This document shows positions 8,298 to 51,868 of a DNA stretch of 64,000 nucleotides, piece by piece. The position numbers were made by a program, and so were the translations under genes. Every line of letters begins with the position of its first letter. Position 1 is the first letter of the stretch. The DNA is from Candidatus Microgenomates bacterium (GTDB lineage Bacteria > Patescibacteriota > Microgenomatia > Daviesbacterales > UBA10151), in NCBI GenBank assembly GCA_016182045.1, contig JACOYE010000007.1, positions 98,121 to 162,120 of the forward strand, given 5' to 3'. A model generated the notes under the pieces. That model did not search any database, had not been told where the DNA came from, and was given only the letters and a program-made list of their open reading frames with translations.

Positions 8298-8310
8298 ATT
8301 TGTTCCCGCT

Positions 8311-8361
8311 CTACCTCCGCCATCCGCCAACCGGCGGAGGCGGAGAGCTACAGGGGAATAT
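8311..8361. repeat. GC-rich hairpin (CTCCGCCATCCGCC-AACC-GGCGGAGGCGGAG) followed by a 17-bp duplicate of the tRNA-Asn 5' end (GAGCTACAGGGGAATAT)
   Basis: 8345-8361 repeats 8038-8054 exactly; hairpin at 8311-8343. Confidence 0.6.
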
Positions 8362-8484
8362 TAATGTACGCTCGTTATTTTACCATTCCCCAAAACCTAA
8401 ATCCAGAGCAAAGAGACCACAACTTAATCTTATAATTTGTAAGAATTAATCTTATTTTAATCCTCATAAGCTATATTCCTCAGC

Positions 8485-22364: not shown

Positions 22365-23561
22365 CTAGCGAATAAAATCTAAGTAGTTCTCCTGGTTAAT
22401 CAGTTGCACTGTTGTTCCATATTCACTGGTAAAGGACTTTGAACCCTTACTCAACAAACCAGTTCCATATTTAAACTCAAATGCCTTTAGCTCCTCATTG
22501 ATGGGTTTTTCTATGTAATCTACCTCTGCTCCTGAATAGCTTCTCCAAAAGTTGGACTCAATACTTTTCCCTTGATTGGCAAATCTCTTTTTTCTTTCAA
22601 CAAAGAGAAAGTTCTCCCATAAAAATCCTGCATCAGCTCTTAAATCAATAGAATTGAAGTCACCAATTAAACTATTCCTAATACCCAAATCTACAAAATA
22701 GATTTTATAACGGCTGCCAATTTCCCTTCTGGGGTTTTTGGAGTAAGGATGGGCACTGACAACTACATAAGATTTTTCTAAAATATCCAGGTAACTAACC
22801 ACTGTCTTCCTGTCTATCTTAAGTCTGTTTGACAGCTCATTCTCGTTAACCTCTGAACCAATCTGATAAGCCAGAGCCTTTGTTAAATCTTTAATAGCTT
22901 GGGAATTTTTAACCCGGGCAAATGCCAATATATCCTTAAAAAGGTAGCTTTCCACAATCCGCTCAAGAAGGGATTGTTTTTGTTCGGGCGTATTTGATAG
23001 ATAGACTTCTGGATATAAACCATAAAGCATTACTTGTGGCAACAGGGCGTCTGCTTCATTTTTAAGTATTACCTCATGAGTGTCTCCTGCTTGCAAGGCT
23101 TCAGTAAACGAAAAAGGGTATAAAGTAAAATCTAGATAACGTCCAGTTAACGGATCACTAAGTTTATTCTTTAAATCAAAACTGGAAGAACCCGTTGCCA
23201 GCACTCGTACTTTCGGAAAATTATCATAAATAATTTTTAATGTCAGTCCTGGATTATCCAGCCATTGAGCCTCGTCAATCAACAAAACATCAACCTCTGA
23301 GAGTAATCTTTCTAAGATTGCCTTTGAGTTGGTGTTTACCGCTGCATTATCCTCTGCTAAATCACAGTTTAGGTATAACACCCTCTTACCTTCTCCTTCC
23401 AGCCTTTTGCTAATGTCTTTAGCTAAAGTGGTTTTACCAACCTGTCTAGCTCCCAGCACCAAAATAATCTTTCCAGATGATTTTAGACTTGAGAATATCA
23501 AATTTTCAATTAATCTTGGTATCATAATCCCAATATTAATACTAATTCTGGGATTTGTCAA
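22365..23561 (-). CDS. AAA_14-type ATPase with DUF4143-like C-terminal domain (COG1373 family), paralog 1
   Basis: Walker A GARQVGKTTL, Walker B LLIDEAQ; same architecture as 38781..40091 and 40951..42210. Confidence 0.7.
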   Translation of the reverse strand: MTNPRISINIGIMIPRLIENLIFSSLKSSGKIILVLGARQVGKTTLAKDISKRLEGEGKRVLYLNCDLAEDNAAVNTNSKAILERLLSEVDVLLIDEAQWLDNPGLTLKIIYDNFPKVRVLATGSSSFDLKNKLSDPLTGRYLDFTLYPFSFTEALQAGDTHEVILKNEADALLPQVMLYGLYPEVYLSNTPEQKQSLLERIVESYLFKDILAFARVKNSQAIKDLTKALAYQIGSEVNENELSNRLKIDRKTVVSYLDILEKSYVVVSAHPYSKNPRREIGSRYKIYFVDLGIRNSLIGDFNSIDLRADAGFLWENFLFVERKKRFANQGKSIESNFWRSYSGAEVDYIEKPINEELKAFEFKYGTGLLSKGSKSFTSEYGTTVQLINQENYLDFIR

Positions 23562-26277: not shown

Positions 26278-27990
26278 TTATTTCCTTTCCGCATTAAACA
26301 GTGGTCCCACAATCTGGATATTGGCCGGGGCTCTTAAATTAAAGAAATTCCTAAATTCTGTCCCATCAAATGTTTCTGATCCTCTGTCTCCTGATACTGT
26401 CACAGAAGTGACCATGCCGGATCCAAAATCCACCCCTACTGACACATCGGATACACTGTTAAATGGACTGCCTCCCCTGCTTCTTAACTCCTGTTTAACC
26501 CGATCTTCATTCCAGGTTTCTCCCCCTTCCGGATTTGGTTTGTCGGTTTGGTAAATATGAGAGGAGACACCACCATCTCTTTTAACAAGCATAATCACAT
26601 TGGCAATATCGGAAACTTCTTCCGACTTTAACCAGGCGCTCTTGGCATATTGGGCTCTGACCCCTTGGGCTGCATAAAAACAGGGGGAATCCTTATCATA
26701 GGCTTTGCTCATTAGATCAGAAAAACTGCCCACATCTCCATTGGTATCCCTAAGTCTTTTTGTCCAGGACCTACCTCCTCCAAAAACATCCCCTGCTGTA
26801 AAGGTATAACCTCCATCAGTTGAGGAATACCAGGCAGTGATTGGTGAACCACCTGATACCATAGTTTTGCCTTCTGTGGCTTTGATAGCCTGTTCCCAGT
26901 TACCGCCTTTGTTGCCGCCTTTATAAACCTGACACTTTTGAGAGGTACAAATTTCTCTTGAGCCATTATCGGTATAAGCTAAGGCATAAGAGCGGGCGGC
27001 GATGGCTTGGGCTTTCAAAGCCTCCATGGGCCAGGAATCAGGCATCTCATATATTCCCAAAAGGTAAGTTTCCAAAGACATAGAACCGTAACCTGACACT
27101 GTAATATTAATATTTGGTCTTTGTTCAAAGGAAAAGTCGGCAAAGTATGCTCTTAATATATCTTCATGATTTTGGCCTGCCTGAGCCCTACCCAGGGCCC
27201 CGTATTGATTCATTCCCACCCGGTGTGGAATACCAAAAGTAAAAAAGGCAAAGGTAGGTCTAAAACCAGGATCAAGCTTCCTATCATCGGTACAAAAAAG
27301 AGGGCCTGCTCCCAAAGAGGTGGGCAAATTTAAAGAGGCCTGTCTTTGAGCAATAATTTGTTGCTGGCGGGCAGTTAGTTGGGCAATCTTGGTGAACAGC
27401 TCTGCCTGATAAGCTTTGGCTTTTTTAATTTCTCCCCCCAAAAATTGGGCATTCTTGTCAACCTCAGCCTGTAAGATATTCAGCCTGGCTTTATCTTTTT
27501 CCAGTTTGTCTTTTTGGGTTAATAAATCCAAAACCTCCTCAGTGATGGAGGAGATGATTTGTCTGTCTTCTCTGGTAACAGATTGTCTGTATGATAACTC
27601 CCTGAATAAATCCCCTGCTTGAATTGAGGATAAAATCACCAATAAAGGATCTGTCAAATAAGATCTGATGTAATACGCCCTGACTCTTTTTTCCAAAAGG
27701 GCCTGTTGCAAAGCCAGCTTGTCTTCTCTGATATCCAATTCCTTTTGTTTATTTTTAATATTTAAAGATAGATAATCCAGATTGGCTTGGATTTGATTAA
27801 GCTGTCTTTGTAAAGAATCTAGTTGCCCTTCCAAAGGTTTGGTGGCCTTAACAGACAGCTCCCGAGCCTTATTTAGCTCATCTATTTGCTTTTGTAAATC
27901 TTCAATTTCATCAGCATGGGTAGGGGTAAGGGAGTAGGGTATAGCGAATAAGAAAAAAATAACTGATAAAAAAAGTATAATCTTACGCAT
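26278..27990 (-). CDS. SpoIID/LytB-domain protein with N-terminal coiled coil (secreted)
   Basis: signal peptide; HRVGMNQYGALGRA and QVYKGG motifs of SpoIID/LytB family. Confidence 0.55.
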   Translation of the reverse strand: MRKIILFLSVIFFLFAIPYSLTPTHADEIEDLQKQIDELNKARELSVKATKPLEGQLDSLQRQLNQIQANLDYLSLNIKNKQKELDIREDKLALQQALLEKRVRAYYIRSYLTDPLLVILSSIQAGDLFRELSYRQSVTREDRQIISSITEEVLDLLTQKDKLEKDKARLNILQAEVDKNAQFLGGEIKKAKAYQAELFTKIAQLTARQQQIIAQRQASLNLPTSLGAGPLFCTDDRKLDPGFRPTFAFFTFGIPHRVGMNQYGALGRAQAGQNHEDILRAYFADFSFEQRPNINITVSGYGSMSLETYLLGIYEMPDSWPMEALKAQAIAARSYALAYTDNGSREICTSQKCQVYKGGNKGGNWEQAIKATEGKTMVSGGSPITAWYSSTDGGYTFTAGDVFGGGRSWTKRLRDTNGDVGSFSDLMSKAYDKDSPCFYAAQGVRAQYAKSAWLKSEEVSDIANVIMLVKRDGGVSSHIYQTDKPNPEGGETWNEDRVKQELRSRGGSPFNSVSDVSVGVDFGSGMVTSVTVSGDRGSETFDGTEFRNFFNLRAPANIQIVGPLFNAERK

Positions 27991-28127: not shown

Positions 28128-28418
28128 ATGACCAGAATTGTAAAATCTTTGCGGAGCGGACAACTGACTATCCCTGCTGATTTCAGGGAACAGCTGGGAA
28201 TCGATACAGACACTTTACTCCAAATCAACCTGATCAATGGTGAGTTGCGTATCAAACCTGTTAAAACCACCCAAACCGTAGCAGGATCGCCCTGGATCAA
28301 GGAATTGTATAAACTTTTTGCCCCGATTCGTAAAGACGCATCAAAATATACCGATGCACAAATAAATACTACTATTGACCGTGCGGTAAAAGCTGTGCGA
28401 AGAAAAAGACATGGTTAA
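28128..28418 (+). CDS. AbrB/SpoVT-type antitoxin
   Basis: GQLTIPADFREQLGI swapped-hairpin N-terminus; overlaps PIN gene by 8 nt. Confidence 0.55.
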   Translation: MTRIVKSLRSGQLTIPADFREQLGIDTDTLLQINLINGELRIKPVKTTQTVAGSPWIKELYKLFAPIRKDASKYTDAQINTTIDRAVKAVRRKRHG

Positions 28419-28833
28419 AGTGGTATTCGATACTATGGTTTTTGTCCGCAGTCTAATAAACCCCAGAAGCTTTTGGGGGAAACTTATCTTTAAATACTCA
28501 AACTCCTACCGTCTCTTTGTTTCGCGACCAGTGCTGCTGGAATTACTTGAAGTTTTAAACAGAGAGGAAATTAGCAAAAAGTTTAAGAGTATTAAAGGAT
28601 TAAATAGCAACAAAATTCTGCAAATTATCTCTCAAGCTGAAACAGTTGAAATATCGGATATCCCGCTGATTTCAAGAGATATAAAAGATGACAAATTTCT
28701 TGCTACTGCCAAGGCTGCAGATGCTGACTATCTGATTACCGAAGATGAAGATTTGTTGGTGCTAAAAGTTTATGCGGGAGTAAAAATCATCAATACAGCC
28801 ACTTTTTTGGATATTATTAAAACTAAACCCTAA
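28411..28833 (+). CDS. PIN-domain protein (putative toxin)
   Basis: VVFDTMVFVRS ... ITEDEDLL acidic residue pattern. Confidence 0.55.
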   Translation: MVKVVFDTMVFVRSLINPRSFWGKLIFKYSNSYRLFVSRPVLLELLEVLNREEISKKFKSIKGLNSNKILQIISQAETVEISDIPLISRDIKDDKFLATAKAADADYLITEDEDLLVLKVYAGVKIINTATFLDIIKTKP

Positions 28834-28890
28834 TCCCTAGACCCTAAACCCTAACTTGTGCTAAGCCACAACTATCTCTCTTTTAGAGAC
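28834..28890. terminator. telomere-like CCCTAG/CCCTAA x3 followed by a 14-bp-stem hairpin (CCACAACTATCTCT...AGAGACTAGTTGTGG)
   Basis: seen directly downstream of the PIN gene stop. Confidence 0.3.
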
Positions 28891-28895
28891 TAGTT

Positions 28896-29903
28896 GTGGT
28901 AAGCTTAAAATTAATGTCCAAAATATCTTTCTATCTAATTTCAGCTGTAACCTTTTTTCTGGTGATGACACTCTTTCTAAAATTCCCGCAGGTTATTCAA
29001 GCCCAGTCAATACCAACCATAGGAGATCTTAAGGTAGGAGAATCTAAACAAATCACTGTATCCGGTTTAGACGCAAAGGAAAAATACTATTGGAGTGAAT
29101 CAAAAGTGACATCTGTTATCCTTGGCCAAACTAACACTCCTATTTTTTATGGTTGTTTTGACTCCAGTGACAAGGGGGAGATACAACGGACCATAGGACC
29201 GTTTTCAACACCAGGACTTTATAAATTAGTAATCGATAGGTCTGAAACTGGCTGTACACCCTCGGGCAATCCAGTGGTATCACAAGACTTTTCGGTGGGA
29301 GGACCAACAGGGCAGAGTTGTTGTACTGCAGCTTTGCCGCGTTATGATAGAAATAAAGATGTCTGTGCAGATATAACCCTACATAATCCTCTACTTCCAC
29401 AACAGACGATTGAAGTAGAAACAGAATGTTCCAACACAAACCCTAAAAGCTACTGTGAACCAGAATCTTTACAATGTTTTACCACTAAAACTCAGGTAAA
29501 GGCCGGGAAAATATGTTTCGATCCTCACGAGCCAGGTTTTGATAAAAATAAACATATTATTTGCGCTAAAAGTGGAGGACAAGAAATTACCGGATGCACT
29601 GATAATAAAGACAATCCGGGGATTGCCACTGCCATTGGCTGTATACATACCTCACCGGTTGGATTTGTTAAAGACGCTTTAAAGTTTATCATTGCCATCT
29701 CTGGGGGTTTGGCATTTTTGATGATGCTTTTGGGAGCATTTCAGATGCTGACATCAGCCGGAAATCCCGAGACTTTGCAGGCCGGACGGGAAAGATTTCA
29801 ATCTGCCATCATCGGGCTTTTGTTTGTGATCTTTGCAGTTTTGCTGCTTCGCATCATTGGAGTTGATATACTGGGACTTGGAAAACAGTTTGGAGGACCA
29901 TGA
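28896..29903 (+). CDS. secreted Cys-rich protein fused to a C-terminal VirB2/TrbC-like T4SS pilin module
   Basis: signal peptide; ~20 Cys in residues 80-240; C-terminal LMMLLGAFQMLTSAGNPETLQAGRERFQSAIIGLLFVIFAVLLL matches the two-helix motif of the five downstream pilin paralogs. Confidence 0.5.
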   Translation: MVSLKLMSKISFYLISAVTFFLVMTLFLKFPQVIQAQSIPTIGDLKVGESKQITVSGLDAKEKYYWSESKVTSVILGQTNTPIFYGCFDSSDKGEIQRTIGPFSTPGLYKLVIDRSETGCTPSGNPVVSQDFSVGGPTGQSCCTAALPRYDRNKDVCADITLHNPLLPQQTIEVETECSNTNPKSYCEPESLQCFTTKTQVKAGKICFDPHEPGFDKNKHIICAKSGGQEITGCTDNKDNPGIATAIGCIHTSPVGFVKDALKFIIAISGGLAFLMMLLGAFQMLTSAGNPETLQAGRERFQSAIIGLLFVIFAVLLLRIIGVDILGLGKQFGGP

Positions 29904-30298
29904 TGATAATGTCAAATTACAAATTTCAAATTACAAATGAAGGTCAAAATCCAAATACTAAAAAGAAATATGATCTTGAGGAAAGGACTGCCAAGTTTGG
30001 GGAAAAGATTCTGGAGTTTGCCAAAAAAATACCACAAAACCCTGTAACATTACCAATCATCAGTCAGCTGGTACGTTCAGGCACCAGTATAGGAGCTAAT
30101 TATTGCGAAGCAGACGGGGCGGAAAGCAAAAAAGACTTCAGACATAAAATAGGAATTTGTAAAAAAGAAGCTAAGGAAACTAAACATTGGCTTAGGATGG
30201 TAGCAAAAGCTGTACCAGACCTTGCACCGGAAGCAAGGGAGTATTGGCAAGAAGCTCAGGAATTGACTTTAATTTTTTCGGCAATTATCAGAAAATAA
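29900..30298 (+). CDS. four-helix-bundle protein (TIGR02436-like, 23S rRNA IVS-protein family)
   Basis: SIGANYCEADGAESKKDFRHKIGICKKEAKETKHWLRM signature. Confidence 0.7.
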   Translation: MMIMSNYKFQITNEGQNPNTKKKYDLEERTAKFGEKILEFAKKIPQNPVTLPIISQLVRSGTSIGANYCEADGAESKKDFRHKIGICKKEAKETKHWLRMVAKAVPDLAPEAREYWQEAQELTLIFSAIIRK

Positions 30299-30407
30299 AA
30301 TATAATGACAAAATCCAAATTACAAATGGCAAATCAAACCTAAATGTCAAAGACAAAAAATTTGTCATTTAGGCTTTGAAATTCATTTGACATTTGGACT
30401 TTGAGCT

Positions 30408-30728
30408 TTGATATTACCAGCTATGTTAAACGATTTACTAAAAGATAGCGGTGTCCCAAATTTTGGCGGTGCAAATGCCAATTTGGGAGCGGTTCTTTCA
30501 GGCCTTTTAAATATTACCTTCTTTATAGCAGTATTTATGACCTTTTACTGGCTGGTCTGGGGATCATTCCAATATATTTTAGCTCAGGGCGAAAAGGAAA
30601 AACTGGCCAGGGCCAGGGAAAGAATCAAATGGGCCATAATAGGACTGTTAGTAGTCTTAATGTCTTATTCTTTTGCCAGATTTGCTTCTGAAATATTCCC
30701 ACCGGGAAAAGGAGGACTACCATTCTAA
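30408..30728 (+). CDS. VirB2/TrbC-like T4SS pilin family protein, paralog 1
   Basis: two hydrophobic helices flanking W(G)x..xxGEKEKLARARERIKWAIIGL loop motif. Confidence 0.5.
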   Translation: MILPAMLNDLLKDSGVPNFGGANANLGAVLSGLLNITFFIAVFMTFYWLVWGSFQYILAQGEKEKLARARERIKWAIIGLLVVLMSYSFARFASEIFPPGKGGLPF

Positions 30729-30778: not shown

Positions 30779-31033
30779 TTGGGAGAAGGAACTTCCAGAT
30801 TGGTTGGACCGATGTTTGCTGCGGCTGCTGTAGCAGTAATTTTATACTTTTTATTTGGAGCATTTTTCTATTTAAGATCAGCCGGAGATAAAGAGGAGAT
30901 CCAAAATGCCAGAAATATGATGACTCATGCTATTGTTGGATTTATACTGTTAATATTTGCCTTTCTGATTTTACAGTTTTTGTTGTATAGTTTATTTGGT
31001 CAACAGATTCCCTTTATCGGAGGAGAAAAATGA
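30779..31033 (+). CDS. VirB2/TrbC-like pilin paralog 2
   Basis: LFGAFFYLRSAGDKEEIQNARNMMTHAIVGF motif. Confidence 0.5.
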   Translation: MGEGTSRLVGPMFAAAAVAVILYFLFGAFFYLRSAGDKEEIQNARNMMTHAIVGFILLIFAFLILQFLLYSLFGQQIPFIGGEK

Positions 31034-31497
31034 TAGTTAAAACTTTTTTGTTTATATTATTTACCGTTTACTCTCTACTATTTACTGTCCCTGTTTATGC
31101 CCGGCCATGTTACCAAGCTCCTGATGGATCACTAATATGCCCTACCCTTTCTCCTGCTCCGACACCAAATGCCATAGAAAGCATTTTTGGCAAAATTATC
31201 CCTCCTGATGCTTTAAAAGGCCTCTTACAACAAGACCCCACCGGGGCCGGGGCCATCAGTAATTTTTTATCCAGACTGGTGGCTTTAATTTATGTTTTTG
31301 CTGCCATAATTTTAATCTTCATGCTGCTTTGGGGAGCCTGGGACTGGATGACCTCTGAGGGAGATAAGGAAAAGATCCAATCTGCCAGAAATAAAATCAT
31401 CAATGCTTTTATTGGTATTTTACTTTTTGCGGTGGCTTTTGCAGTTATCCGAGTTCTGGGACAATTTACCGGTTTTACCTTCTTTGTGGGACAATAG
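31030..31497 (+). CDS. VirB2/TrbC-like pilin paralog 3
   Basis: signal peptide; LLWGAWDWMTSEGDKEKIQSARNKIINAFIGILLFAVAFAV. Confidence 0.55.
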   Translation: MIVKTFLFILFTVYSLLFTVPVYARPCYQAPDGSLICPTLSPAPTPNAIESIFGKIIPPDALKGLLQQDPTGAGAISNFLSRLVALIYVFAAIILIFMLLWGAWDWMTSEGDKEKIQSARNKIINAFIGILLFAVAFAVIRVLGQFTGFTFFVGQ

Positions 31498-31536: not shown

Positions 31537-31920
31537 ATGGCTATGCGAAAATTAGCACTGGTAGGATCATCAATAGTCTATCTTCTTTCCGCAGTGATGG
31601 TATTTGCCCAATCACCCACCCCACAAATCAAAATTTCTCCTCCCACCCAAGGTTACTCTGATCTGGGGGCTTTTGTGACCAATGTTTTAACTTTGTCTTT
31701 TATAGTGGCTGTCCTAGTAGTTTTGGTGATGCTGATTTGGGGAGCTTTTGAATGGATCACTTCCGGTGGAGACAAGGAAGCAGTAGGAAAAGCCAGAAAC
31801 AGAATCATCAATGCCTTGATTGGCCTGGCTGTTTTGGCTGTGGCTTTTGCCCTATTTAAAGTGGCAGGTCAATTTTTGGGCTTCCCCACCACAGAATTTA
31901 CCATTCCCACACCACCTTAA
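31537..31920 (+). CDS. VirB2/TrbC-like pilin paralog 4
   Basis: signal peptide; LIWGAFEWITSGGDKEAVGKARNRIINALIGLAVLAVAFAL. Confidence 0.55.
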   Translation: MAMRKLALVGSSIVYLLSAVMVFAQSPTPQIKISPPTQGYSDLGAFVTNVLTLSFIVAVLVVLVMLIWGAFEWITSGGDKEAVGKARNRIINALIGLAVLAVAFALFKVAGQFLGFPTTEFTIPTPP

Positions 31921-32352: not shown

Positions 32353-34188
32353 ATGGTAGGGAAACCCAAAGCTCAAATGTCAAATTTCAAATCAAATCTA
32401 AATTTCAAAAAATTTGTCATTTGTCATTTTAATTTTGGCATTCATTTGTTATTTGTTATTTTGATTTTGACATTAGTGGCCACTCCAGTTTCAGCCCAGA
32501 CCTCCACCCCATCTGCCTCCCCCCTACAACCTACCACCTACAACCTACCACCTACTGTTTCACCCACCTCCCCTCTCTACACCGACCTTTTAGTCCACAA
32601 CTTATTCCATTCATTTAGTTGTCTGGCAGTGGGTCAATCTGTCATTGGCCAAGCTTGTTTAACCTACCAGCTTACCCAAAATACTCAAGGAGCTATTCAA
32701 TCCATACCGGTTTTATCACAGACTAATTTATCTGGGGGAGCTTTGGGGGCCACCACCTCTTTGATAGGCATGCTTTATCAAAATCCTCCGATCAGAACAG
32801 CTGATTATCTGGCATCAGTGGGACAAGGTTTGGGAATTGTGAAGGAAGCTCATGCCCAAGTGGTAGGGTCTGGGGCCAATGTCTTAAGTCCAATTTTAGC
32901 TCTTTGGCAGGTTTCAAGAAATATAGCTTACTTGGTAATGATTATAATTTTTGTAATTATAGGGCTGATGGTGATGTTCAGACAAAGGATTAACCCTCAA
33001 ACAGTCATCACAGCTCAAGCTGCATTACCCGGTCTTGTGATTGGCCTAATTTTAATAACCTTTAGCTACTTTTTGGCAGGATTAATATCAGATACGGCCT
33101 TTATTGGCACAAATTTGGTAGGGGCTTACTTTTCTGCAGTTAAAGGACACTCAGACAAACCGCAAAATCTGGTAGATGAGATAAAATCTCAAAATGTTTT
33201 AACTATTTTCACTCCCTTTACCAGAATAGCCAGCTTTGACAAAGTTAGCGATGCCCTGAGTTCAATCTGGAATGATCTAGCAGATCCAAATGTATGTAGG
33301 AATTGTCCATGGGAACAGGATCCACAGAAAGTTCTGACTGCCCTGATGGCATTTCTGGTTGCTCAAGTTATCATGCCCTTTGGAGGAATGCTTGGGGGAC
33401 CAGGACAATTGGCAGCTGGGGTGATATCATTTGGGGGAGCTGCCCTTCTTCCTACACAACTGGTCACTGTAGGCCTAACCTTTGTAGCCATGGTAATTTT
33501 GATTTATGCCATGTTTAGATTACTACTGCGATTGATTAATAATTATCTCAGCATTATTTTTTTGACAATCACCGCTCCATTTCAATTTTTAGCTGCCGCT
33601 TTGCCGGGCAGACAGGGAACCGCCACCAATTGGATTCTACAGATGCTGGCCAATATCTTGGCATTTCCGGCTGTTTTGGCAGTGTTTTATTTCGTGGCCT
33701 TTTTGTTAGGCCAAGATTTTGGCCCCCTTAAAGTTTCTCAGATAAACCAAGTGCAAAACAATGGACCGGTAACAGCTGCATACGCACAAGGTAAAATCAA
33801 TGTGGCAGATATTGAAACTTTTCCTTTGTTTGGCGGCATGGATTTAGAGTTTATCAGGATTCTTTTGGCTTTCGGGGCACTGGTGGCATTGCCTAAGATT
33901 CCTGATTTGGTGGCAAGAGCCCTGGGAGCAGTAAGTGAGGCAGGACAACTGCTCGGTCAGGAACTGGGTGGCAGCGTTGCTGCAGGCAGAGGCTATGCCG
34001 GCCAATTCCAACAAGGTGCTAGCGGTCTGGCTGGACAAGCGGGTAGACTGACAAACGAAACATACTACTATAGAGATGAAGCTGGCAATCTAAAAGTAAA
34101 TCCAATGTTGTCTCGAGCTGGACAAATATCGAAAGCTATATCTAATGTGAAGGGATGGTTTGGTAGAGGTCCGAAACCTACTATCTAG
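32353..34188 (+). CDS. polytopic membrane protein, candidate VirB6/TrbL-like T4SS channel subunit
   Basis: signal peptide, Pro/Thr-rich region, then >=8 TM helices; position directly after pilin genes. Confidence 0.35.
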   Translation: MVGKPKAQMSNFKSNLNFKKFVICHFNFGIHLLFVILILTLVATPVSAQTSTPSASPLQPTTYNLPPTVSPTSPLYTDLLVHNLFHSFSCLAVGQSVIGQACLTYQLTQNTQGAIQSIPVLSQTNLSGGALGATTSLIGMLYQNPPIRTADYLASVGQGLGIVKEAHAQVVGSGANVLSPILALWQVSRNIAYLVMIIIFVIIGLMVMFRQRINPQTVITAQAALPGLVIGLILITFSYFLAGLISDTAFIGTNLVGAYFSAVKGHSDKPQNLVDEIKSQNVLTIFTPFTRIASFDKVSDALSSIWNDLADPNVCRNCPWEQDPQKVLTALMAFLVAQVIMPFGGMLGGPGQLAAGVISFGGAALLPTQLVTVGLTFVAMVILIYAMFRLLLRLINNYLSIIFLTITAPFQFLAAALPGRQGTATNWILQMLANILAFPAVLAVFYFVAFLLGQDFGPLKVSQINQVQNNGPVTAAYAQGKINVADIETFPLFGGMDLEFIRILLAFGALVALPKIPDLVARALGAVSEAGQLLGQELGGSVAAGRGYAGQFQQGASGLAGQAGRLTNETYYYRDEAGNLKVNPMLSRAGQISKAISNVKGWFGRGPKPTI

Positions 34189-34202: not shown

Positions 34203-37200
34203 CTAAATTATCTTATCGGTCAACCAATCTTCAATTGATTCAGATCCTGTTGTCTTATTCCCTCCTTCATAGATTTTAAACTTTTTAGAAAGGAAGCTAT
34301 TCCAATATTTTTCCCTTCTGTATACATCAGCTCCACCTCCTGGGCTCTCATCCTGCAACCAATCATAAAATCCTCTTCGTCCTTCCTCCCCATACAAAAA
34401 TGCATCTTGTCTATTCCTGGCAGTACCATTATTTTTTAGGATATCTTTGTCTGATTCAATGGCAGTATTAAAACTACCATCCGACAAAAATACCTCTACT
34501 TCCTCTAGATTTAAAGCTCCTGCTGAATTATCAGTGGCTGAATACATCACCCTCATATCATGGGTAACCTTTGTTAACCTGCCAAAACATTCTTTAAATT
34601 TATATAGAAACGGTATGGTCTTTGTTGCACTATCTAAAAGGTCTCCAGAGATAGCGTCTCCAGCATATCCATGCATAGTTTCATTATTATCAGTTGGTTT
34701 TTCATACAAACCAAAAACCCACTCTCCTGTTTGAGGATCAACATAGCCAACTGAATGATTAAACATTTCAACTGCTTTATCCTGCACTTCAAAAATTTTC
34801 GTCAGTCCAAATTGTCCCACTATGCCTTGGTGCGAAATCTTCTTGATTTCATCTGCCATTACCTTAACTGCTCCAGATAATCCATGTACTCCCCATCTGG
34901 GACCTGCGGCATCATGTTCAAAAGGAGCATCAGCAATTTCAGCACCAAGTCTTCTGGATAAACGAGAAGTTTGCTGAGCTGCAAATTCCACAAAACCTAA
35001 TGTAAACCTATCCATTCCTGCCCAATCCTCGTTCCTATAACCTACCCGCATCCTGCCTATATAACCATCTCTAGGAAGAAATGCTCTATATAATCCATGC
35101 TTCCCTCTTTGTCTATCTTGAAATGACTCTAAGACGGCAGCTGCTACAAGGGCAACTTCTCTTTGTTGTTGAACATCTTCAAACTTTTTAACCCGTCTTA
35201 AAGTTGGATCTACAATCAAAAGTTGGGTGGCTAATATATCTTCATCTTCCCAACGAGACAAACCGTCTCTGATTCGTTCTGCTACCTTAAAGATACGAGG
35301 AGCCAATATAGTCACTCTATTATTGCCCTGGTAATACCAATAGGTATGGTCAGTATAACGGTTACGAAAATCGCTACTTTGGGCAGCTATTTGGAAAGTT
35401 GCTACTGCTTCCTCAACTAAAGTATCCCCTACTAGCTTTGCTTTGGTATTTTTGTTGATATTGTCATAATTAACAAGCTGACGATCATTAGGATCAGCTT
35501 TATCATAAATAATAACTTTACCATCCTGATCAAACTCTAATCCTATTGGATTGCCGTTATTATCAAAAGAAAGTTTAACTTCTTTGCCTGCCTGGTTAAA
35601 ACCCAAGATTTCACCATTTTTGAATTTTGTGAATTGACCTGTATTAGGCTCTATCCTTCCCAGCGGTCTTTTAAAAGTCATTGGTTTTGGTTGACCATCT
35701 GGACCTAACTCATCATCCAAAAGTTGAGCTGTATATCCCTTTGTTCTTAATTCTTCTGTCAACCTTGCTCTTGCTTCTCTTACTTTTTGCCTTCTGACTT
35801 TTGCCGGTTCGTTTGCATATTTCATCTTGGTCCAGGTAACACCCCATTGGACAAAGTTTTCTGCCTGGTAAGTTGGGATATTGTCAACAAAGTCATGTTT
35901 ATCTTCAGGGCTTAGCCGTGCATAAAGATCTTGCCAATATTTAGGAAAGCTATCTAGTCTTTTGCCACCGCTTTCCCCACCTCTCATTTTGTATAACATC
36001 CAGCCTATCTCGAACGATCTTCTATTAGCTTGCGGGAGAGAATCTCTTATTTTTTCAATTTCCTCTACTTTAAGTGCATCCGTATTTATTACTTTTGTTT
36101 TGTCTGTATCTATCCATTTCAGTCTTAATCCATCACTCACACTCTGGTAATATTGAATATGAGGATTTCTGTCCACATATAAAAATCCTCTACCTCTTCT
36201 AGCTTTCTCTCCTAATACTCCCTGCATTTGAAAAGCAATATCAAAATTAGCTGCTGCTTCATCATAAGCTGCCTTGTATGCTTGTCGATCTCGCGGACTT
36301 AATCGATCAATTGCCTTTTCGCCTTTTTCTAATTTTATCTGACCCCTAATTATAGCTTGTCTGAGTTCCCGAAGCTGTACCTGAATTCTTCCTAAATCTA
36401 TTGACTTTCTGATGGTTTCCGGGAGGTCAGCAAAAGCTGGATATTTTCTTTGATACTGTCTTTGATCTTCGGGCTTACTTTGATCTTCGGCAAAACGGTC
36501 TTGATCTTCTTTATAGCTTAGATAATTTTTAATGTGGTAATCACCTTTATCAAAACCTTCGTATAATCTTTTAAACTCTTCATCGGATTTGGTCAGGCCG
36601 AGTCTTTTTAAATTTGCTCTGTAAGCATTAAGCCTGGCTTGATCATGTACACGCTTTGCCTGATTATCTCCACCTAGTAGATCAATCGCTGTTTCGCCTG
36701 GCTTCAATTTTATTCTACCAGTGCTGATATCGTTTTCTATACTTCGAAGATCTGACTTAATTCTCTCTAAATCGCCGGCCGCATCAATTTTCGCTTGTAA
36801 ATCATCAGAGTTAAAATACTCATCCCTAGGATCATAATCCTTAAGCACAATACCCATTCCTCTTTCAATTACCATCTCCTGAATTTGATCTTGTTTGAAA
36901 TGACCAGCAACAATATCTAACTCTCCTCTTTCTCCTACAGGATTATTATAAATATCCATTACATCTTCGAAGTCAAAAATCTCAGTAAAAACAGCTACTC
37001 CCCCTTTTCCTGCTCGATATAATGCTACCCATCTGGCTGGCCCTTCATCCAAAGACATTGCCACCATTGCCTCTTTTTTCTGCTTGGGGTTATAAACCTC
37101 ATTTGCATAGTTACCCACAAAAACATATAATAATGCTTCCAGTTCCAACCTATTTTCTTCCAAAAAATCAGCATCGATATTACCTTCTCTGACCTGTCTT

Positions 37201-45962: not shown

Positions 45963-47009
45963 ATGGATGCACATCCTGTTCCTCAAAATGTCACCTCCTT
46001 CCAATTCAAATTGGTGGGGGATATGACTTTAAAACAATTTATTTATTTGGCTGCAGGGGTTGGTATTGCCTATTTTATCTTTGTCTTTCTGACAGCCGAC
46101 TACCCTGTGGTTGCCTGGCCCCTGATTGTCATCTCCACCATCCTGGGTGCAGCTTTTGCCTTTTTACCAATAGGGTCAAGGCCCCTGGATTACTGGCTGG
46201 GAGCATTTTTAAAAGCCATCTACTCCCCCACCAAAAGAGTCTGGCAAAAAAACAAGAAAAGTTACCTTCAGGATCCCCTTTTTAAAAGTAGATACGTGAT
46301 GTTTGCTTCCACTTTACATCCTCAACCGCCGATCGGTCCAATCCTCAGGCCGGTTGATCAAACCCAACCTGCCGGAACTTTACAGGTTAGCCTGGCGCTT
46401 TCACCACCTTCCCCCTCCAATCTGCCCACCCAAGAGGAACTTAAGAAAACAGTGGAGCTGGCTCGTCAGGCTCAAATATTACAAACCCAAATTATCCAGA
46501 CCGAAAGAGCTCTGGATCAAATTAGAGCAAAAGCCAATCAACCCATTGCTGCTCCCGCTGATTACACTGAGCAGGTCAACAAAATCATGACCGATTTACA
46601 AAGATTGATCAGTCAAACTTCTAATATTAAGAGCGAACTGGATGCTGTCAGTCATCCTGAGCAAACCGAACCTCAAGTTGTGGTACCTAAAGAAAAGTTA
46701 AGGGTGGTGATACCCAAAAAAACTCAACCTCAGGTAGCTTTAACCATCTTTCCCAATGTGATAAACGGTATTGTTAAAAATGTAGATGGGGATTATCTGG
46801 AAGGAGTAGTGGCAGTCATTTACGATAAAGAGGGCTTACCGGTCAGAGCTTTAAAAACTAACAAGCTGGGCCAATTTTCAGGCTCAACCCCTCTGCCCAA
46901 CGGTACATACACATTAGAGCTTGAGAAAGAAGACCTAAACTTTGATGCTTTACAAATAGAACTGGACGGTCAAATACTGCCACCGCTTATTATCACGGCT
47001 AAACAGTAA
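45963..47009 (+). CDS. T4SS-locus membrane protein: N-terminal two-TM region, Pro/Gln-rich coiled coil, C-terminal beta-sandwich-like domain
   Basis: TM helices at residues 27-46 and 50-70; C-terminal NGTYTLELEKED beta-sandwich-like segment. Confidence 0.35.
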   Translation: MDAHPVPQNVTSFQFKLVGDMTLKQFIYLAAGVGIAYFIFVFLTADYPVVAWPLIVISTILGAAFAFLPIGSRPLDYWLGAFLKAIYSPTKRVWQKNKKSYLQDPLFKSRYVMFASTLHPQPPIGPILRPVDQTQPAGTLQVSLALSPPSPSNLPTQEELKKTVELARQAQILQTQIIQTERALDQIRAKANQPIAAPADYTEQVNKIMTDLQRLISQTSNIKSELDAVSHPEQTEPQVVVPKEKLRVVIPKKTQPQVALTIFPNVINGIVKNVDGDYLEGVVAVIYDKEGLPVRALKTNKLGQFSGSTPLPNGTYTLELEKEDLNFDALQIELDGQILPPLIITAKQ

Positions 47010-47015
47010 AAATTT

Positions 47016-47765
47016 ATGAAAACAACTCAACAACATCTGGCTTTCGCCGATATCAAAGACGACCTGATTTTTCTAAAGGACGGAGGAGGGGCTTTGGTGT
47101 TACAAACTTCCGCAGTCAATTTTGGATTGTTATCGGCCCGCGAACAGGTGGCAATCATTGCTGCTTTTGCACAACTTCTAAACTCACTTTCTTTTAGCAT
47201 ACAAATTGTTGTCCACTCGGAAAGACTCAATATCTCCTCCTATCTTAATCTGTTGGACCAAGCTAAAAAGAGTCAAACCAATCCCCTTCTGTCCAAACTG
47301 ATGACTTCTTACCGCCAATTTATCCAAACCACCATTAAGGAAAACGAGGTTTTGGATAAAAAATTTTATATAGTCATTCCGCTTTTTAAGCTGGAGGTGG
47401 GACTTACTTCATCCAAAGAAGCACTGGATCAAAAAATTAAGACCGTACTTTTCCCCAGAAGAGATCAACTGATCCGCCAACTTAACAGAGTTGGCCTTAA
47501 GGCCACTCAACTGACTTCAACTAAACTGATCGATCTCTTTTATGATATCTACAACGGTGGGGAAGCAGAATTGTCACCACCTCAACCTTTAAGTGAAGCT
47601 GAACAGGTAAAACTTAATCAAGTCCAGCCAGTAATGGCACCTACAATTCAAAGCCAAAGCCCACTTCAGACCATCCCCCCTCAAGGACCAACCCCTTACC
47701 AACCATTGAGCAGTCAACCAACCAAAACCCATCCGTTTGTGGTGGAAGAATTGGAGGAAACTTAA
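47016..47765 (+). CDS. VirB4 extreme-N-terminal-like domain protein (separate ORF)
   Basis: HLAFADIKDDLIFLKDGGGALVLQTSAVNFGLLSAREQ...LNSLSFSIQIVVH resembles the first ~150 residues of VirB4/TrbE ATPases. Confidence 0.35.
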   Translation: MKTTQQHLAFADIKDDLIFLKDGGGALVLQTSAVNFGLLSAREQVAIIAAFAQLLNSLSFSIQIVVHSERLNISSYLNLLDQAKKSQTNPLLSKLMTSYRQFIQTTIKENEVLDKKFYIVIPLFKLEVGLTSSKEALDQKIKTVLFPRRDQLIRQLNRVGLKATQLTSTKLIDLFYDIYNGGEAELSPPQPLSEAEQVKLNQVQPVMAPTIQSQSPLQTIPPQGPTPYQPLSSQPTKTHPFVVEELEET

Positions 47766-47857
47766 ATTTTAAATTACAAATTTGAAATTTTAATTCAAAT
47801 TAAAATGTATTAATTTTTAATGTTTTAAACATTTAGTCATTTAAAATTGATTAAAAA

Positions 47858-49633
47858 TTGAAAATTATGAAGATACCAAAATTATTTAAAAAACCCAAAG
47901 CCCAAGAGGTTATTACTCCTCAATTAACCATTGAGGATGTCATTGCTCCTGCTGAGCTGGAGGTGGATTTTAATGAGTTGAAGATCAACAATTTTCATTT
48001 TAGGACTTATTTCGTGTCCAACTATCCCAGATTTATTGAACCTAATTGGCTGGAGCCTTTAATCTCTTTTGATCACTCTCTTTTGATTTCCATGTTTATT
48101 TATCCAACTCAACCGGCCGGTGTTTTGGATGAGTTAAAAAGAAAAATTGCCGAAATGGAAGCCACCATCCAAACCGACATAGAGAGGGGTAAGGCAGTTG
48201 ATCCGACAGTAGAGGTAGCATTGGAGGATGCCCGAACGCTTCAGGAACAACTGGTGAAAGGATCGGAAAGATTTTTCCAGTTTGCCTTGTACGTAACAGT
48301 CCCTGCTGCTACCAAAGAGGAGTTGCATAATACCTCCAAGCTGGTGGAGTCAACTTTGGCCTCTTTATCTATCACCTCCCAGCCGACCACCCTGCAGATG
48401 GAGGATGGTTTTAAATCAACCATCCCACAAGGGTTAGATCTTTTGAATCTGACTCACAATATGGATACCACCTCTTTGGCCACCACCTTCCCTTTTGCCT
48501 CATCGGAGTTGACTGCCAACGAAGGCATCATGTACGGCATTAACGAGCACAACGATTCCTTAATTTTGTTTGACAGATTCAGTTTGGAGAATGCCAATTC
48601 GGTTATCTTCGCCAAATCCGGGGCAGGCAAGAGCTATTTTGTCAAACTGGAAGCCTTAAGATCTTTAATGTTTGGAACAGAAATACTAATTATTGATCCT
48701 GAGCAGGAATATTTATCTTTATCTCAGGCAGTAGGTGGTGAGTATATTAATTTTTCTCCCTCTTCTGCTGTTAAAATCAATCCTTTTGATATGTCTTCTC
48801 AAGTATCGGAGGAAAATGAGTTAGGTAGAAAAATCCTCTCTTTGACAGCCTTTCTAAAAATTGTCCTGGGAAACTTATCTGCCCAGGAAGCAGCTATTTT
48901 GGACCGGGCCTTAAAGCAAACTTATTCGCTCAAAGGCATTACCGATGACCCCAAAACACAAAGCAATCCGCCAGCCGGCGGACCACCTTTGATGGAAGAT
49001 TTATACAAAGTGTTAATCGGCATGGAGGAACAACCCGCCCTGGAGCTGGCAGCCAGACTGGAAAGATTTATCAAAGGATCGCTGTCTGGTATTTTCTCTC
49101 AACAATCAAATGTGGACTTATCCAATTCCTTCACGGTTTTTTCTTTAAGAGATCTTCCGGATCAGCTAAGACCGCTGGCCATCCATATGATTTTAGATTA
49201 TGTCTGGACTAAGATCAGAAGCAAGTTAAAAAAAAGAATTATGGTGGTGGATGAGGCCTGGTATTTGATGAAAAATCCAGATTCTGCCGACTTTTTGGTG
49301 GACATGGCCAAAAGAGCTCGCAAATATTATTTGGGGCTGACCACCCTCACCCAAGACATCGAGGATTTTTTGGGGACCGAGAGAGGCAAGGAGATTATTT
49401 CCAACTCATCAATCCAAGTGCTACTTAAACAGGCTCCGGCCTCAATTGATCTGCTGGCTCAAATATTTAACTTATCAGAGGGGGAACAAAGACTTTTGCT
49501 ATCAGAAGGGATCGGTCAAGGGCTATTTTTTGCAGGCAATACTCATGTGGCTATGAGAGTGGTAGCCTCACCCCAGGAACATCAGTTGATCACCTCCAAT
49601 CCACAAGAAATATTGGCAAGACAAAATGTATAA
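47858..49633 (+). CDS. VirB4/TraC/TrbE-type T4SS ATPase
   Basis: Walker A AKSGAGKSY, IIDPEQEY, Walker B VVDEAW (DEAW hallmark), LTTLTQ motif. Confidence 0.8.
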   Translation: MKIMKIPKLFKKPKAQEVITPQLTIEDVIAPAELEVDFNELKINNFHFRTYFVSNYPRFIEPNWLEPLISFDHSLLISMFIYPTQPAGVLDELKRKIAEMEATIQTDIERGKAVDPTVEVALEDARTLQEQLVKGSERFFQFALYVTVPAATKEELHNTSKLVESTLASLSITSQPTTLQMEDGFKSTIPQGLDLLNLTHNMDTTSLATTFPFASSELTANEGIMYGINEHNDSLILFDRFSLENANSVIFAKSGAGKSYFVKLEALRSLMFGTEILIIDPEQEYLSLSQAVGGEYINFSPSSAVKINPFDMSSQVSEENELGRKILSLTAFLKIVLGNLSAQEAAILDRALKQTYSLKGITDDPKTQSNPPAGGPPLMEDLYKVLIGMEEQPALELAARLERFIKGSLSGIFSQQSNVDLSNSFTVFSLRDLPDQLRPLAIHMILDYVWTKIRSKLKKRIMVVDEAWYLMKNPDSADFLVDMAKRARKYYLGLTTLTQDIEDFLGTERGKEIISNSSIQVLLKQAPASIDLLAQIFNLSEGEQRLLLSEGIGQGLFFAGNTHVAMRVVASPQEHQLITSNPQEILARQNV

Positions 49634-49642
49634 TGGAACTGT

Positions 49643-51868
49643 ATGGCATTACGTGATGTCAAAAACTTTAGATTTTTATACAAGGCTTTAGAATATAAAT
49701 ACCTTCACCCACAAGCCAGTGGATATTTGGGGTTGGATTACGATCCTCACATTTATAAACTATTTTATGACACATTAACTTTTATCCAACAGACAGCGCA
49801 TGTGGATCTGAGAGATTATTTAAATATTAAAGATCCTAAAGTTTTAGAAAAATTTTATAAAGGTTTGGCCATAGATATAAGGTTAAGATTTTTAAGTAAA
49901 CCTGAAAGTGTGGCCACAGATGCTCGATATATTTTGACTGATGAGTATTATCAACAATATCCACAAGATTCAGAGGCAGAAAAAGAAGTTTTAGGGGCGC
50001 AAACATCCTCAACTGCATCTTCAGAATCTCAACAGCCAGGAATAGGATTCCCCTTTCCGGCAGGTTTAAGCGGACAGAGAATCCCCAGGAGAGTAGTTTA
50101 CATTGCACCCCAGACTAAAACTCCCCAAGCTAAATTATACGTGGCTGATAAAAGCGGCAGGGTGGTGGAAGAAAGAACCATCACTCCCACCTCAACAATT
50201 GTTAAGAAACCGGAAACACCATCAGTCTCAGAACACCCTCTGGGTGGAAAAACCATCAAAGCTGCTGAACAGCCAAAATTGGTGGTTGCAGAAGCACCTT
50301 CAAAGCAAATCTTTATTGCTGACAAAAGTGGGGCAATTAAAGGAATCCACAATATCAAATCTCCCAGCTGGTTAAAAACTTTCGGCTCAAATACCCAGAT
50401 ATTTACCAAAAAAGCTGTTAATCGTCTGGCTTCGGGCTTGACTAATTTCTTAAAGGGAGCGGGAGGAGCAGGGGGAGGTCTTTTGGGAGGTCTTGCTGGG
50501 ACAGGAGGCAGATTTTTAGGTGGCGCAGGAATTGGTGGTCTTAACTCCCTGGTATCTTTTTCTAATCAAATATCCAGAGGAAGTATTATTAAAGGCCCTC
50601 CAGGAAAATTCTGGCTGATTCTTTTGGGAGTGTTTCTTTTGGTAGGCACTATTGCCGCCATATCCCCTACCGGGCAACCAACTCCCACCGCTCAAGCAGG
50701 ACCAGTTGGACCTATAAATCTGTTAAGTTGTCAGCTTACCAGATCTGACCAAACACCGATACAAGGCTCTATTAAAAGCTCTATTCTGGTTAGATTATTC
50801 CAGGAAGCCGAACTTACCACTACAGTACCCGCAGCAGTTTTGGCAGGGATTGCCAGATTGGAAAACCCTAATTTTGTGATAAATGCCGATGATAATCATG
50901 ATGCCTTTTATGATAGAAATTTTACTGATCTGACAACTTGTACTCCTCATTTTGGCATGAGTCCCACCGGAGCATTGGGTCTAATGCAACTCCAACCGCC
51001 TGGCACAACAGGTTCATTTCCCTCAGGACTAGAACAGGGAGCTAAATTTTTAAATAAGACCTTGCAAGAGGTAAATTATTGTAATGTTAGAGAAAATATA
51101 TTCCTGGCTGCCGGATTTATTTTAAAAAAGCTACAAGGTTATAATATCGGGGATGGAACCAGGTGGGATCCTGCCTGGACAAATGACCAGAATGTTATCT
51201 ACAAGGTAGCGGAAAGTTTTTATGGCTGTCTACCCTATGGAGGTTCAAACCCTACCAAATGTGAGGGACCTTACAGTTATGGCCAGGATCTTTGGGCCAG
51301 TATCCAATCCTGTCAATCTATAGCATCACAACCTCTGGGCTGTCCAGCCATAGGAACTATCACTGGCCCTTACGGGTATAATATCCCTGATTATAATTAT
51401 CAGAACGAAGGATGTACCCCTCTTCAAAACTGCCATAACGGCATTGACATAGGTGCTTCTTTAGGTGATACGCTAGTATCAACCATTGAGGGAATAGTCA
51501 CAGAAATAGGTGACAATCATCCTCAAAGAGGTGATTATATCCAAATCTCAAATCAATCATCTGCGCTTGTCATAACCTATGAGCATATGTTAGATATCAG
51601 TGTACAAAAGGGAGAACAAATACAAAGGGGTCAAAAAGTAGGAACGGTTGGGGAGGGCGGTGAGGGTGTCAGTGGTCCTCATCTACATTATAAAATCCAA
51701 AAAAACGGAAACCTCCTTAATCCTTTTAAATATCTGGGTGATTCTTCTCCTCCTCTCCCATCACATACTCTGGCTTCATCTGATAATCTGGCAGATAACG
51801 ATTATGCTAATGTTCCCATTACTCCTGAAATAAGGGATAACTGGGGGCAGTGTAATAAATCACCATGA
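49643..51868 (+). CDS. bifunctional cell-wall hydrolase: lytic transglycosylase (SLT-like) + M23 metallopeptidase, membrane-anchored (VirB1/CwlT/TcpG analogue)
   Basis: TM at ~aa 325; GALGLMQLQP (SLT); HNGIDIG ... GPHLHY (M23 HxxxD / HxH). Confidence 0.7.
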   Translation: MALRDVKNFRFLYKALEYKYLHPQASGYLGLDYDPHIYKLFYDTLTFIQQTAHVDLRDYLNIKDPKVLEKFYKGLAIDIRLRFLSKPESVATDARYILTDEYYQQYPQDSEAEKEVLGAQTSSTASSESQQPGIGFPFPAGLSGQRIPRRVVYIAPQTKTPQAKLYVADKSGRVVEERTITPTSTIVKKPETPSVSEHPLGGKTIKAAEQPKLVVAEAPSKQIFIADKSGAIKGIHNIKSPSWLKTFGSNTQIFTKKAVNRLASGLTNFLKGAGGAGGGLLGGLAGTGGRFLGGAGIGGLNSLVSFSNQISRGSIIKGPPGKFWLILLGVFLLVGTIAAISPTGQPTPTAQAGPVGPINLLSCQLTRSDQTPIQGSIKSSILVRLFQEAELTTTVPAAVLAGIARLENPNFVINADDNHDAFYDRNFTDLTTCTPHFGMSPTGALGLMQLQPPGTTGSFPSGLEQGAKFLNKTLQEVNYCNVRENIFLAAGFILKKLQGYNIGDGTRWDPAWTNDQNVIYKVAESFYGCLPYGGSNPTKCEGPYSYGQDLWASIQSCQSIASQPLGCPAIGTITGPYGYNIPDYNYQNEGCTPLQNCHNGIDIGASLGDTLVSTIEGIVTEIGDNHPQRGDYIQISNQSSALVITYEHMLDISVQKGEQIQRGQKVGTVGEGGEGVSGPHLHYKIQKNGNLLNPFKYLGDSSPPLPSHTLASSDNLADNDYANVPITPEIRDNWGQCNKSP

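Follow-up and report, generated by a model that had tools for sequence, protein, structure and literature searches.

A VirB2-like pilin with an exchangeable, cysteine-rich head opens a conserved six-pilin operon in Daviesbacteria-type Microgenomates

Contig JACOYE010000007.1 of a Candidatus Microgenomates bacterium carries, within a stretch of 64,000 nucleotides that was analysed as a whole (positions 98,121 to 162,120; hereafter the window), an operon with six pilin genes of the kind that belongs to a type IV secretion system (T4SS). The first gene encodes a protein in which a cysteine-rich N-terminal head precedes a C-terminal two-helix pilin module. Such a fusion, and a role for it as a tip adhesin, had been proposed from the letters of the sequence (the original prediction). 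The fusion is certain, and the adhesin role is plausible. Both parts lie in one uninterrupted open reading frame (ORF; 28896-29903, forward strand). The original prediction had named as refuting a frameshift or stop between them, or the absence of a conserved pilin motif; the ORF is intact and its product is identical to the GenBank protein, and the pilin part matches a family profile above its curated threshold. Head and pilin base also share one ORF in 23 full-length homologs. Taken together, the sequences of related loci argue that the fusion is genuine, ancient and modular.

Residue numbers throughout are those of the 335 amino acid (aa) translation that starts with the GTG at position 28896 (residue 1). 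In the hydropathy profile an N-terminal segment of the signal type is followed by a hydrophilic part some 214 aa long, and two hydrophobic helices form the C-terminus (Table 1). The signal segment is also visible as a helix at residues 3-28 in the AlphaFold2 (AF2) model, and it ends at VIQA-QS, a signal peptidase I site of the A-x-A type where a small-x-A motif is kept in homologs. The mature protein would have about 299 aa. The AF2 model, built from an alignment of 24 sequences, has a mean predicted local distance difference test score (pLDDT) of 81 for the full protein and of 85 for the head alone, and shows in order the signal helix, a beta-sandwich, a Cys-rich region (141-250) and a helical hairpin. 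The ectodomain (residues 37-250, about 214 aa) is composed of an immunoglobulin (Ig)-like beta-sandwich and a Cys-rich stalk. The original prediction had pictured a disulfide-rich globular domain of about 250 aa; the enrichment in cysteine was recovered, the size is smaller, and the model contains two distinct parts instead of one domain. The stalk consists of short strands (pLDDT 57-94) and has no recognisable fold, with no Pfam match even at E = 10 and no match in structure searches. Over the whole of residues 141-250 the pLDDT ranges from 57 to 94, with its minimum close to the membrane.

There are 12 cysteines in the protein (positions 87, 120, 142, 143, 157, 178, 187, 194, 207, 223, 234 and 249), not the 20 or so originally counted, and each of the Cys motifs quoted at that time is present in the sequence. 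Cysteine makes up 3.6% of the residues, every one of them between positions 87 and 249; the window has 37 further ORFs with 150 aa or more, of which most have about 1% or below and just one exceeds 2%. All 12 are kept in 20 of the 23 full-length homologs, and the losses are pairwise: 207 with 223, 87 with 120, and 142 with 157 (C87 and C120, for instance, are jointly absent in homolog P0084). Because the cysteines are conserved, even in number and lost in pairs, the head probably carries about six disulfides.

Foldseek searches of the PDB, with the full and the head-only models, and of BFVD gave generic matches to Ig-like and fibronectin type III (Fn3)-like folds only, with E-values of about 1e-4 and TM-scores of 0.5-0.6 on small targets. 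When 1.8 billion representative sequences were searched exhaustively with the head (phmmer), only 35 hits resulted, which are pilins of the same architecture and weak matches of the Ig-like part to giant proteins of 1,500-2,900 aa (P0121-P0140). In these giant proteins the Ig-like part matches 7-27 tandem repeats, and those that were scanned carry Ig_2, POM152-Ig, PKD or DUF7933 repeats. Their weak resemblance to the Ig-like domain of the pilin head suggests a shared stock of surface-protein modules from which the heads are drawn.

The pilin module was assigned by profile. Residues 259-320 match the Pfam family PF18895 (T4SS_pilin) with 31.7 bits over profile positions 10-70 of 71, above the curated gathering cut-off of 26.6 bits, and this is the only Pfam hit of the whole head-bearing pilin. 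All six pilins of the operon score above the cut-off, and no further PF18895 copy was found in the 64-kb window. The five downstream paralogs are 23-32% identical to the C-terminus of the head-bearing pilin, so that the two-helix module is indeed shared as first proposed; over 17 family members, the mean column identity of the module is 76%. The original prediction had called the protein a pilin and left its kind unspecified. The label stands, and the sequence features point to a type IV secretion (VirB2-like) pilin, not to a pilin of type IV pili. A type IV pilus pilin was rejected on two grounds: the N-terminus (MSKISFYLISAVTFFLVMTLFLKFPQVIQA followed by QS) has a Sec-type A-x-A site and no G-F-x-x-x-E motif, and the hydrophobic pilin module is C-terminal, with two helices and without a class III signal peptide. 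A sortase-assembled Gram-positive pilin was rejected as well, the C-terminus (...IIGVDILGLGKQFGGP) being without LPXTG.

A first homology search with the head-bearing pilin returned 613 hits. About 23 of them span the whole protein, with 40-63% identity; the remaining hits (217-563 aa, 55-85% identity) have only the last 30% or so in common with it and contain PF18895 as their sole family. The motif TAIGC is present in 115 of the top 120 hits, about 89 residues before the C-terminus, and in all 115 a second Cys lies 12-23 residues upstream of it, which indicates that the membrane-proximal disulfide loop is probably universal in the family. TAIGC...SAGNPETL can serve as the signature of this base subfamily.

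Scanning one genome per species, we recovered 71 loci, essentially single per genome, mostly from Daviesbacteria with a few from Curtissbacteria, Roizmanbacteria and other Microgenomates. One recurring layout emerged from automated gene mapping of the 71 loci, taken together with five annotated contigs. It begins with a SpoIID-like gene on the reverse strand, a variable insert (often a toxin-antitoxin pair) and the large pilin, and continues with the five short pilins, preceded in about 15 loci by a four-helix-bundle gene, and then with a polytopic membrane protein (about 600 aa) and a protein of 1,400-1,550 aa on the reverse strand. In about 60 genomes from independent assemblies, a head-bearing pilin stands at this place in the operon. 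We then compared the window with five related loci. The base of the large pilin is 78-85% identical to that of the window, whereas the head is 28-49% identical or unalignable; for the SpoIID-like protein and the 600-aa membrane protein the values are 52-80% and 50-62%, respectively. The short pilins find their best match at the same position in four of the five loci, with 51-83% identity there; the fifth (L003) has three short pilins only. Since short pilins match same-position pilins of other loci best, the six genes are an old, ordered set of distinct subunits and not a recently amplified variation cassette.

The heads themselves are highly variable. In a sample of 47 complete species-level first pilins, the length ranges from 135 to 599 aa and the heads fall into 26 clusters. 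Among the 304 pairs with 65-80% identity in the base, 275 have no detectable similarity in the head. The number of cysteines in the mature protein is even in 45 of the 47, with a range of 2 to 22. At two loci (L064, 5875-6279; L069, 5884-6291) the first pilin is headless: these proteins of 135-136 aa comprise only signal peptide, two-Cys loop and pilin module, and have kept exactly the membrane-proximal Cys pair. The headless form is probably the minimal or ancestral one. In relatives, then, the fusion is kept and not split into separate genes, apart from these two headless orthologs, and since they stand at the same position, the head is an insertion between the signal peptide and a genuine pilin, one that has been gained and exchanged repeatedly. 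An additional PF18895 protein of 756 aa is encoded upstream of the usual large pilin in the Daviesbacteria genome L003 (6044-8314), and the gene is also present in L004 and L018. As its base resembles short pilin 2, this locus has two head-bearing pilins that are independent of each other. Between genomes, the third and fourth pilins vary from about 110 to 241 aa; in the window, two Cys lie in a small N-terminal extension of short pilin 3. These length differences and the Cys extras of pilins 3 and 5 suggest that smaller variable decorations are present on other subunits too.

Pilin arrays are already known from the candidate phyla radiation (CPR). VirB2-like arrays of Patescibacteria contain 2-11 genes and are most abundant in Microgenomatia, and no adhesins were detected in CPR T4SS loci (Quinonero-Coronel et al. 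2025, PMC12102498). In Southlakia epibionticum the array SEML1_0014-0019 encodes six pilins and is essential (Wang et al. 2023, PMC10633639); these pilins appear small, up to about 190 aa, from the PF18895 match positions tabulated there. The array of the window is like those described in both studies in belonging to the PF18895 family, in being a tandem set of six divergent paralogs, and in its chromosomal location close to the T4SS core and dnaA; the monoderm-type T4SS core beside dnaN also corresponds to the arrangement described for Patescibacteria (PMC12102498). It differs in that the first pilin bears a disulfide-rich head, of 214 aa here and up to about 500 aa in relatives, and in that its base is a separate, highly conserved subfamily.

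The canonical pilins VirB2, TrbC and TraA likewise have a signal or leader peptide and a two-helix hydrophobic hairpin with a short polar loop, are stored in the membrane, and are encoded with VirB3- and VirB4-like genes. They polymerise with phospholipid, forming a pilus outside the cell. However, they measure about 70 aa when mature and carry no extra domain; of the pilins here, only the paralogs fit a small mature size of about 70-100 aa. Some canonical pilins are cyclised head to tail, which would be impossible with an N-terminal head; furthermore, they have no profile similarity to the window pilins, and the host here is a monoderm. VirB5/TraC and PrgB resemble the head-bearing pilin in the role proposed below, that of a low-copy, surface-exposed T4SS recognition element. 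They are not homologous to it: VirB5 is an all-helical soluble protein and PrgB an LPXTG wall-anchored adhesin, whereas here the proposed binding head is fused to the pilin subunit itself. No relationship to VirB5 in fold or family was detected (PF18895 is the only Pfam match, the head is a beta-sandwich with a Cys-rich coil, and its fold hits are Ig/Fn3-like only). In type II secretion and type IV pili, large minor pilins of the GspK kind cap the filament with an extra domain. The logic is similar: a conserved pilin base for incorporation is extended by a globular domain, and the genes for one large minor subunit and several smaller ones stand together in fixed order. Type IV pilus pilins differ in having a single N-terminal helix, a class III signal peptide, and an unrelated fold and machine; in the protein described here the extra domain is N-terminal to a two-helix hairpin. 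In the open-access literature that was searched, including PMC12102498, PMC10633639 and the 2025 T4SS reviews, no N-terminal-ectodomain pilin or pilin-adhesin fusion is described for T4SS or CPR. Relative to that literature, a VirB2-like CPR pilin with a modular disulfide-bonded ectodomain, conserved as the first pilin of Daviesbacteria-type six-pilin operons, is new.

We propose that the protein is a minor pilin and its head a surface-displayed binding module on a T4SS pilin subunit, a reading to which we give an even chance. The precursor would be exported by Sec and its signal peptide cut after VIQA. On the outer side of the membrane the ectodomain would fold into an Ig-like sandwich carried by a stalk, with about six disulfides holding it, while the C-terminal hairpin would sit in the membrane and turn its short inter-helix loop to the cytoplasm, as in VirB2-type pilins; the signal peptide and the disulfide pattern are the basis for this topology. 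The T4SS (PrgI/TrsD/VirB4, possibly with the 600-aa protein) would extract the head-bearing pilin, along with its five short paralogs, to build a pilus or stalk outside the cell. The solved structures of conjugative pili have the inter-helix loop turned toward the lumen (PMC11722321). The termini would then lie on the exterior, so that an N-terminal head should project outward. The head would most likely act there as a lineage-specific contact module for the host cell surface, functionally equivalent to VirB5 or PrgB, because the base is more conserved than any neighbouring protein and the head is exchanged between lineages. Adhesion by the head is plausible given the outward topology, a hypervariable head on a conserved base and the first operon position, and also because VirB5- or PrgB-like adhesins are reported absent in CPR (PMC12102498).

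The weakest step is the last one, in which the head-bearing pilin would be a low-copy, first-assembled subunit of the tip. A gene that is fixed in first place in the operon and present once per locus fits this idea, as does the specialised, highly constrained base of its product. VirB5, for comparison, is put in place on VirB6 beforehand, and growth of the pilus takes place underneath it (PMC12624023). We consider the tip-specific version less likely than surface display of a binding head in general.

Several points weigh against this proposal. What would place the head at the tip is gene order and analogy only. None of the six pilins hit PF04956 at E <= 0.1; hhalign of the pilin alignment with Agrobacterium tumefaciens VirB2 and F TraA (both sequences entered by hand) gave a probability below 1%; and no solved pilin was matched by profile search. 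Two of the six PF18895 pilins of S. epibionticum also match PF04956 (Wang et al. 2023, Table S2; PMC10633639), and these hits are the sole, indirect and weak tie between the window pilins and canonical VirB2/TrbC/TraA. The head matches generic Ig-like folds and no known ligand-binding family (Foldseek, Pfam). With 24 sequences, the AF2 alignment is shallow, and the model has low confidence in the membrane-proximal stalk (pLDDT 57-75). The T4SS core lies 16 kb from the pilin operon, and the 600-aa membrane protein is no more than a candidate VirB6-like platform. Finally, no CPR bacterium has been observed with a T4SS pilus, and pili are generally absent from monoderm T4SSs (PMC12102498, PMC12857230).

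This last point favours an explanation in which the protein is an envelope component that never polymerises. The pilin-like hairpin would then be a membrane anchor, or a subunit of a short membrane-proximal stalk, and the ectodomain would span or bind the cell wall or S-layer within the T4SS channel, with no contact to a host. The very strong conservation of the base would fit tight packing inside a machine, a SpoIID-like cell-wall enzyme is always adjacent, and an ectodomain of about 214 aa may by itself fall short of the exterior of the envelope. However, a spacer is expected to be conserved, and instead unrelated modules replace the head (47 genomes hold 26 types, sized between 0 and about 500 aa), as is typical of parts that face the environment; the headless orthologs moreover show that the machine can dispense with a head. 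We regard this explanation as rather unlikely, yet as deserving serious weight.

A pilin that decorates the shaft seems to us distinctly improbable. It would co-polymerise along the filament, and the Ig-like heads would coat the pilus for multivalent adhesion or shielding. Its module is the same as in the other pilins, and the N-termini of conjugative pilins should be on the filament exterior, judging from the lumen-facing loop (PMC11722321). In addition, proteins with the T4SS-pilin domain can be very highly expressed, being among the highest-expressed genes of unknown function in Patescibacteria-enriched methanogenic cultures (PMC10936435). On the geometry of published pili, however, heads of up to about 500 aa would clash sterically if every subunit of a tightly packed VirB2-type helix bore one, and a base that forms its own subfamily, with 23-32% identity to the short pilins, argues for a specialised position.

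We give almost no credence to an assembly or frameshift fusion of two genes, rejected because the intact ORF recurs in dozens of independent assemblies and in an identical GenBank protein, or to a diversity-generating retroelement target, for which an Avd-like gene (PF05635, weak bAvd) directly follows the pilin here and at about 15 related loci, but which was rejected since no template/variable repeat pair touches 28896-29903, no reverse transcriptase (RVT_1) occurs among the ORFs of the 64-kb window (the lone RVT_3 hit is RNase H), and head diversity takes the form of whole-module replacement, not of point variation in a C-terminal variable region.

The coordinates of the pilin operon and its surroundings are collected in Table 1. 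Translation of the first pilin is likely to start at the ATG at 28914 (M7): all 23 aligned full-length homologs begin at the M7 position, most with MSK, the GenBank annotation has 329 aa, and the GTG at 28896 falls within the 3' arm of a strong hairpin. This hairpin has a minimum free energy of -22.4 kcal/mol (z-score -5.2), and none of 200 shuffled sequences folds as well. Its role could be to terminate the toxin-antitoxin pair upstream or to control translation. A short CCCTAA-like repeat run lies just before it, at 28823-28855, and occurs a second time at 59186-59237.

The large pilin is the first of the array, as originally proposed, but it is not directly adjacent to its paralogs, as the four-helix-bundle gene intervenes between it and short pilin 1; the ATG of this gene overlaps the pilin stop codon, and a member of the same family fills the same slot at about 15 of about 70 related loci. 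AT-rich repeats of the CAAAT type flank it (29913-29955 and 30302-30416) and are found again ahead of the genes for the 600-aa membrane protein (32367-32475) and VirB4 (47763-47816). A small mobile insert is one possible explanation for the gene with its repeats, a shared regulatory element another. For short pilin 1, the top match in each of the five related loci is the same-position pilin (59-64% identity).

The 600-aa polytopic membrane protein of the window has no match in Pfam or NCBIfam; no PDB match turned up either, and its orthologs show sub-threshold similarities only, to TrbL (1 of 37), TcpE (3 of 37) and TrbC (2 of 37); it is possibly a VirB6-like platform. The SpoIID-like gene is divergent from the pilin operon in nearly all related loci. 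As VirB1 is usually missing in CPR (PMC12102498), its product may be the cell-wall remodelling enzyme of the apparatus. The gap between this gene and the large pilin holds MazE/PIN toxin-antitoxin genes in the window (28128-28833). Elsewhere (about 8250-8950) BrnT/BrnA, HicAB or YafQ toxin-antitoxin genes were found in four of L001, L003, L005, L006 and L007, and an AAA_14 ATPase in L007. The gap looks like an insertion hot spot, mostly for toxin-antitoxin pairs. On the other side of the operon, the conserved neighbour of 1474 aa (34203-38627, reverse strand) has no family match in Pfam or NCBIfam.

Downstream of the T4SS core cluster lie dnaN (52325-53440) and dnaA (54076-55392), and yidC and genes for the primary sigma factor and primase are also present: the window is chromosomal and close to the replication origin. 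Three paralogous AAA_14/DUF4143 ATPase genes were noted at 22365-23561, 38781-40091 and 40951-42210, interspersed with PIN-domain genes. Four copies of a 45-nt direct repeat (up to 93% identical; 38736, 40232, 40904 and 42349) surround the latter two ATPase genes and a PIN gene, and these groups look like repeated selfish or defence-like cassettes. Another repeat, of 47 nt and containing a palindrome (GGATGACA...TGTCA), has three intergenic copies (21270, 57648 and 61060).

Table 1. Location of the head-bearing pilin, its parts and the neighbouring features in the window.
Feature	Coordinates	Strand	Remarks
SpoIID-like protein, N-terminal coiled coil	26278..27990	-	PF08486, E = 1.7e-19
Strong RNA/DNA hairpin, shortly upstream of the likely start codon	28856..28908	+	Minimum free energy -22.4 kcal/mol
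Head-bearing T4SS pilin, coding sequence	28914..29903	+	329 aa from ATG; 100% identical to GenBank HYT18_01250 (Candidatus Microgenomates bacterium)
Signal peptide, residues 7-36	28914..29003	+	Basic n-region (MSK), hydrophobic core, VIQA-QS
Ig-like beta-sandwich, about residues 37-140	29004..29315	+	AF2 pLDDT 87-98; holds C87 and C120
Cys-rich stalk, residues 141-233	29316..29594	+	8 Cys: 142, 143, 157, 178, 187, 194, 207, 223
Membrane-proximal Cys loop, C234...C249 (GCTDNKDNPGIATAIGC)	29595..29642	+	Where the part common to all head types begins
Pilin module	29655..29870	+	Hydrophobic helices 254-286 and 291-325, SAGNPETL loop between
Four-helix-bundle gene	29900..30298	+	PF05635 (E = 3e-15), TIGR02436 (E = 4e-21); 23S rRNA IVS protein family, Avd-like
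Short T4SS pilin 1, 106 aa	30408..30728	+	PF18895, 32.9 bits
Short T4SS pilin 2, 84 aa	30779..31033	+	PF18895, 33.5 bits
Short T4SS pilin 3, 155 aa, signal peptide	31030..31497	+	PF18895, 30.1 bits
Short T4SS pilin 4, 127 aa, signal peptide	31537..31920	+	PF18895, 35.0 bits; 70-83% identity to orthologs
Short T4SS pilin 5, 115 aa	31966..32313	+	PF18895, 31.0 bits; C-terminal Cys pair, Pro/Thr/Ser-rich tail
Polytopic membrane protein, about 600 aa	32353..34188	+	Last of the pilin operon; syntenic in nearly all related loci
T4SS core cluster	45963..51868	+	The four genes below
PrgI/VirB3-like	45963..47009	+	T4SS core
TrsD-like	47016..47765	+	T4SS core
VirB4-like ATPase	47858..49633	+	T4SS core
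M23 peptidase	49643..51868	+	T4SS core cluster; followed by dnaN, then dnaA

In the sole system tested, the CPR T4SS with its pilin array is essential for epibiotic growth, and no adhesin has been assigned to the machine. With its lineage-specific head and nearly invariant base, the pilin offers a concrete candidate for the missing element by which ultrasmall CPR bacteria recognise and contact their hosts. A bolder and, as a whole, unlikely version can be formulated: the six order-conserved pilins would build a heteromeric T4SS pilus tip, in which the base docks on the machine and the swappable head (at least 26 types) binds a lineage-specific host receptor, making the first pilin the host-range determinant of Daviesbacteria-type CPR epibionts. 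If this were true, the adhesin of these bacteria would be built into a VirB2-type pilin and replace VirB5 or PrgB, and the tip complexes that minor pilins form in type II secretion and in type IV pili would have a convergent counterpart here. Should the ectodomain instead be an envelope spacer, the locus would still define a conserved six-pilin module that includes the SpoIID-like gene and the polytopic membrane protein and would make a worthwhile target for CPR genetics. At least 26 head types and headless variants on one chassis offer a natural experiment for linking genotype to host range. The protein also widens what a VirB2-type pilin can be, the canonical ones being bare subunits of about 70 residues.

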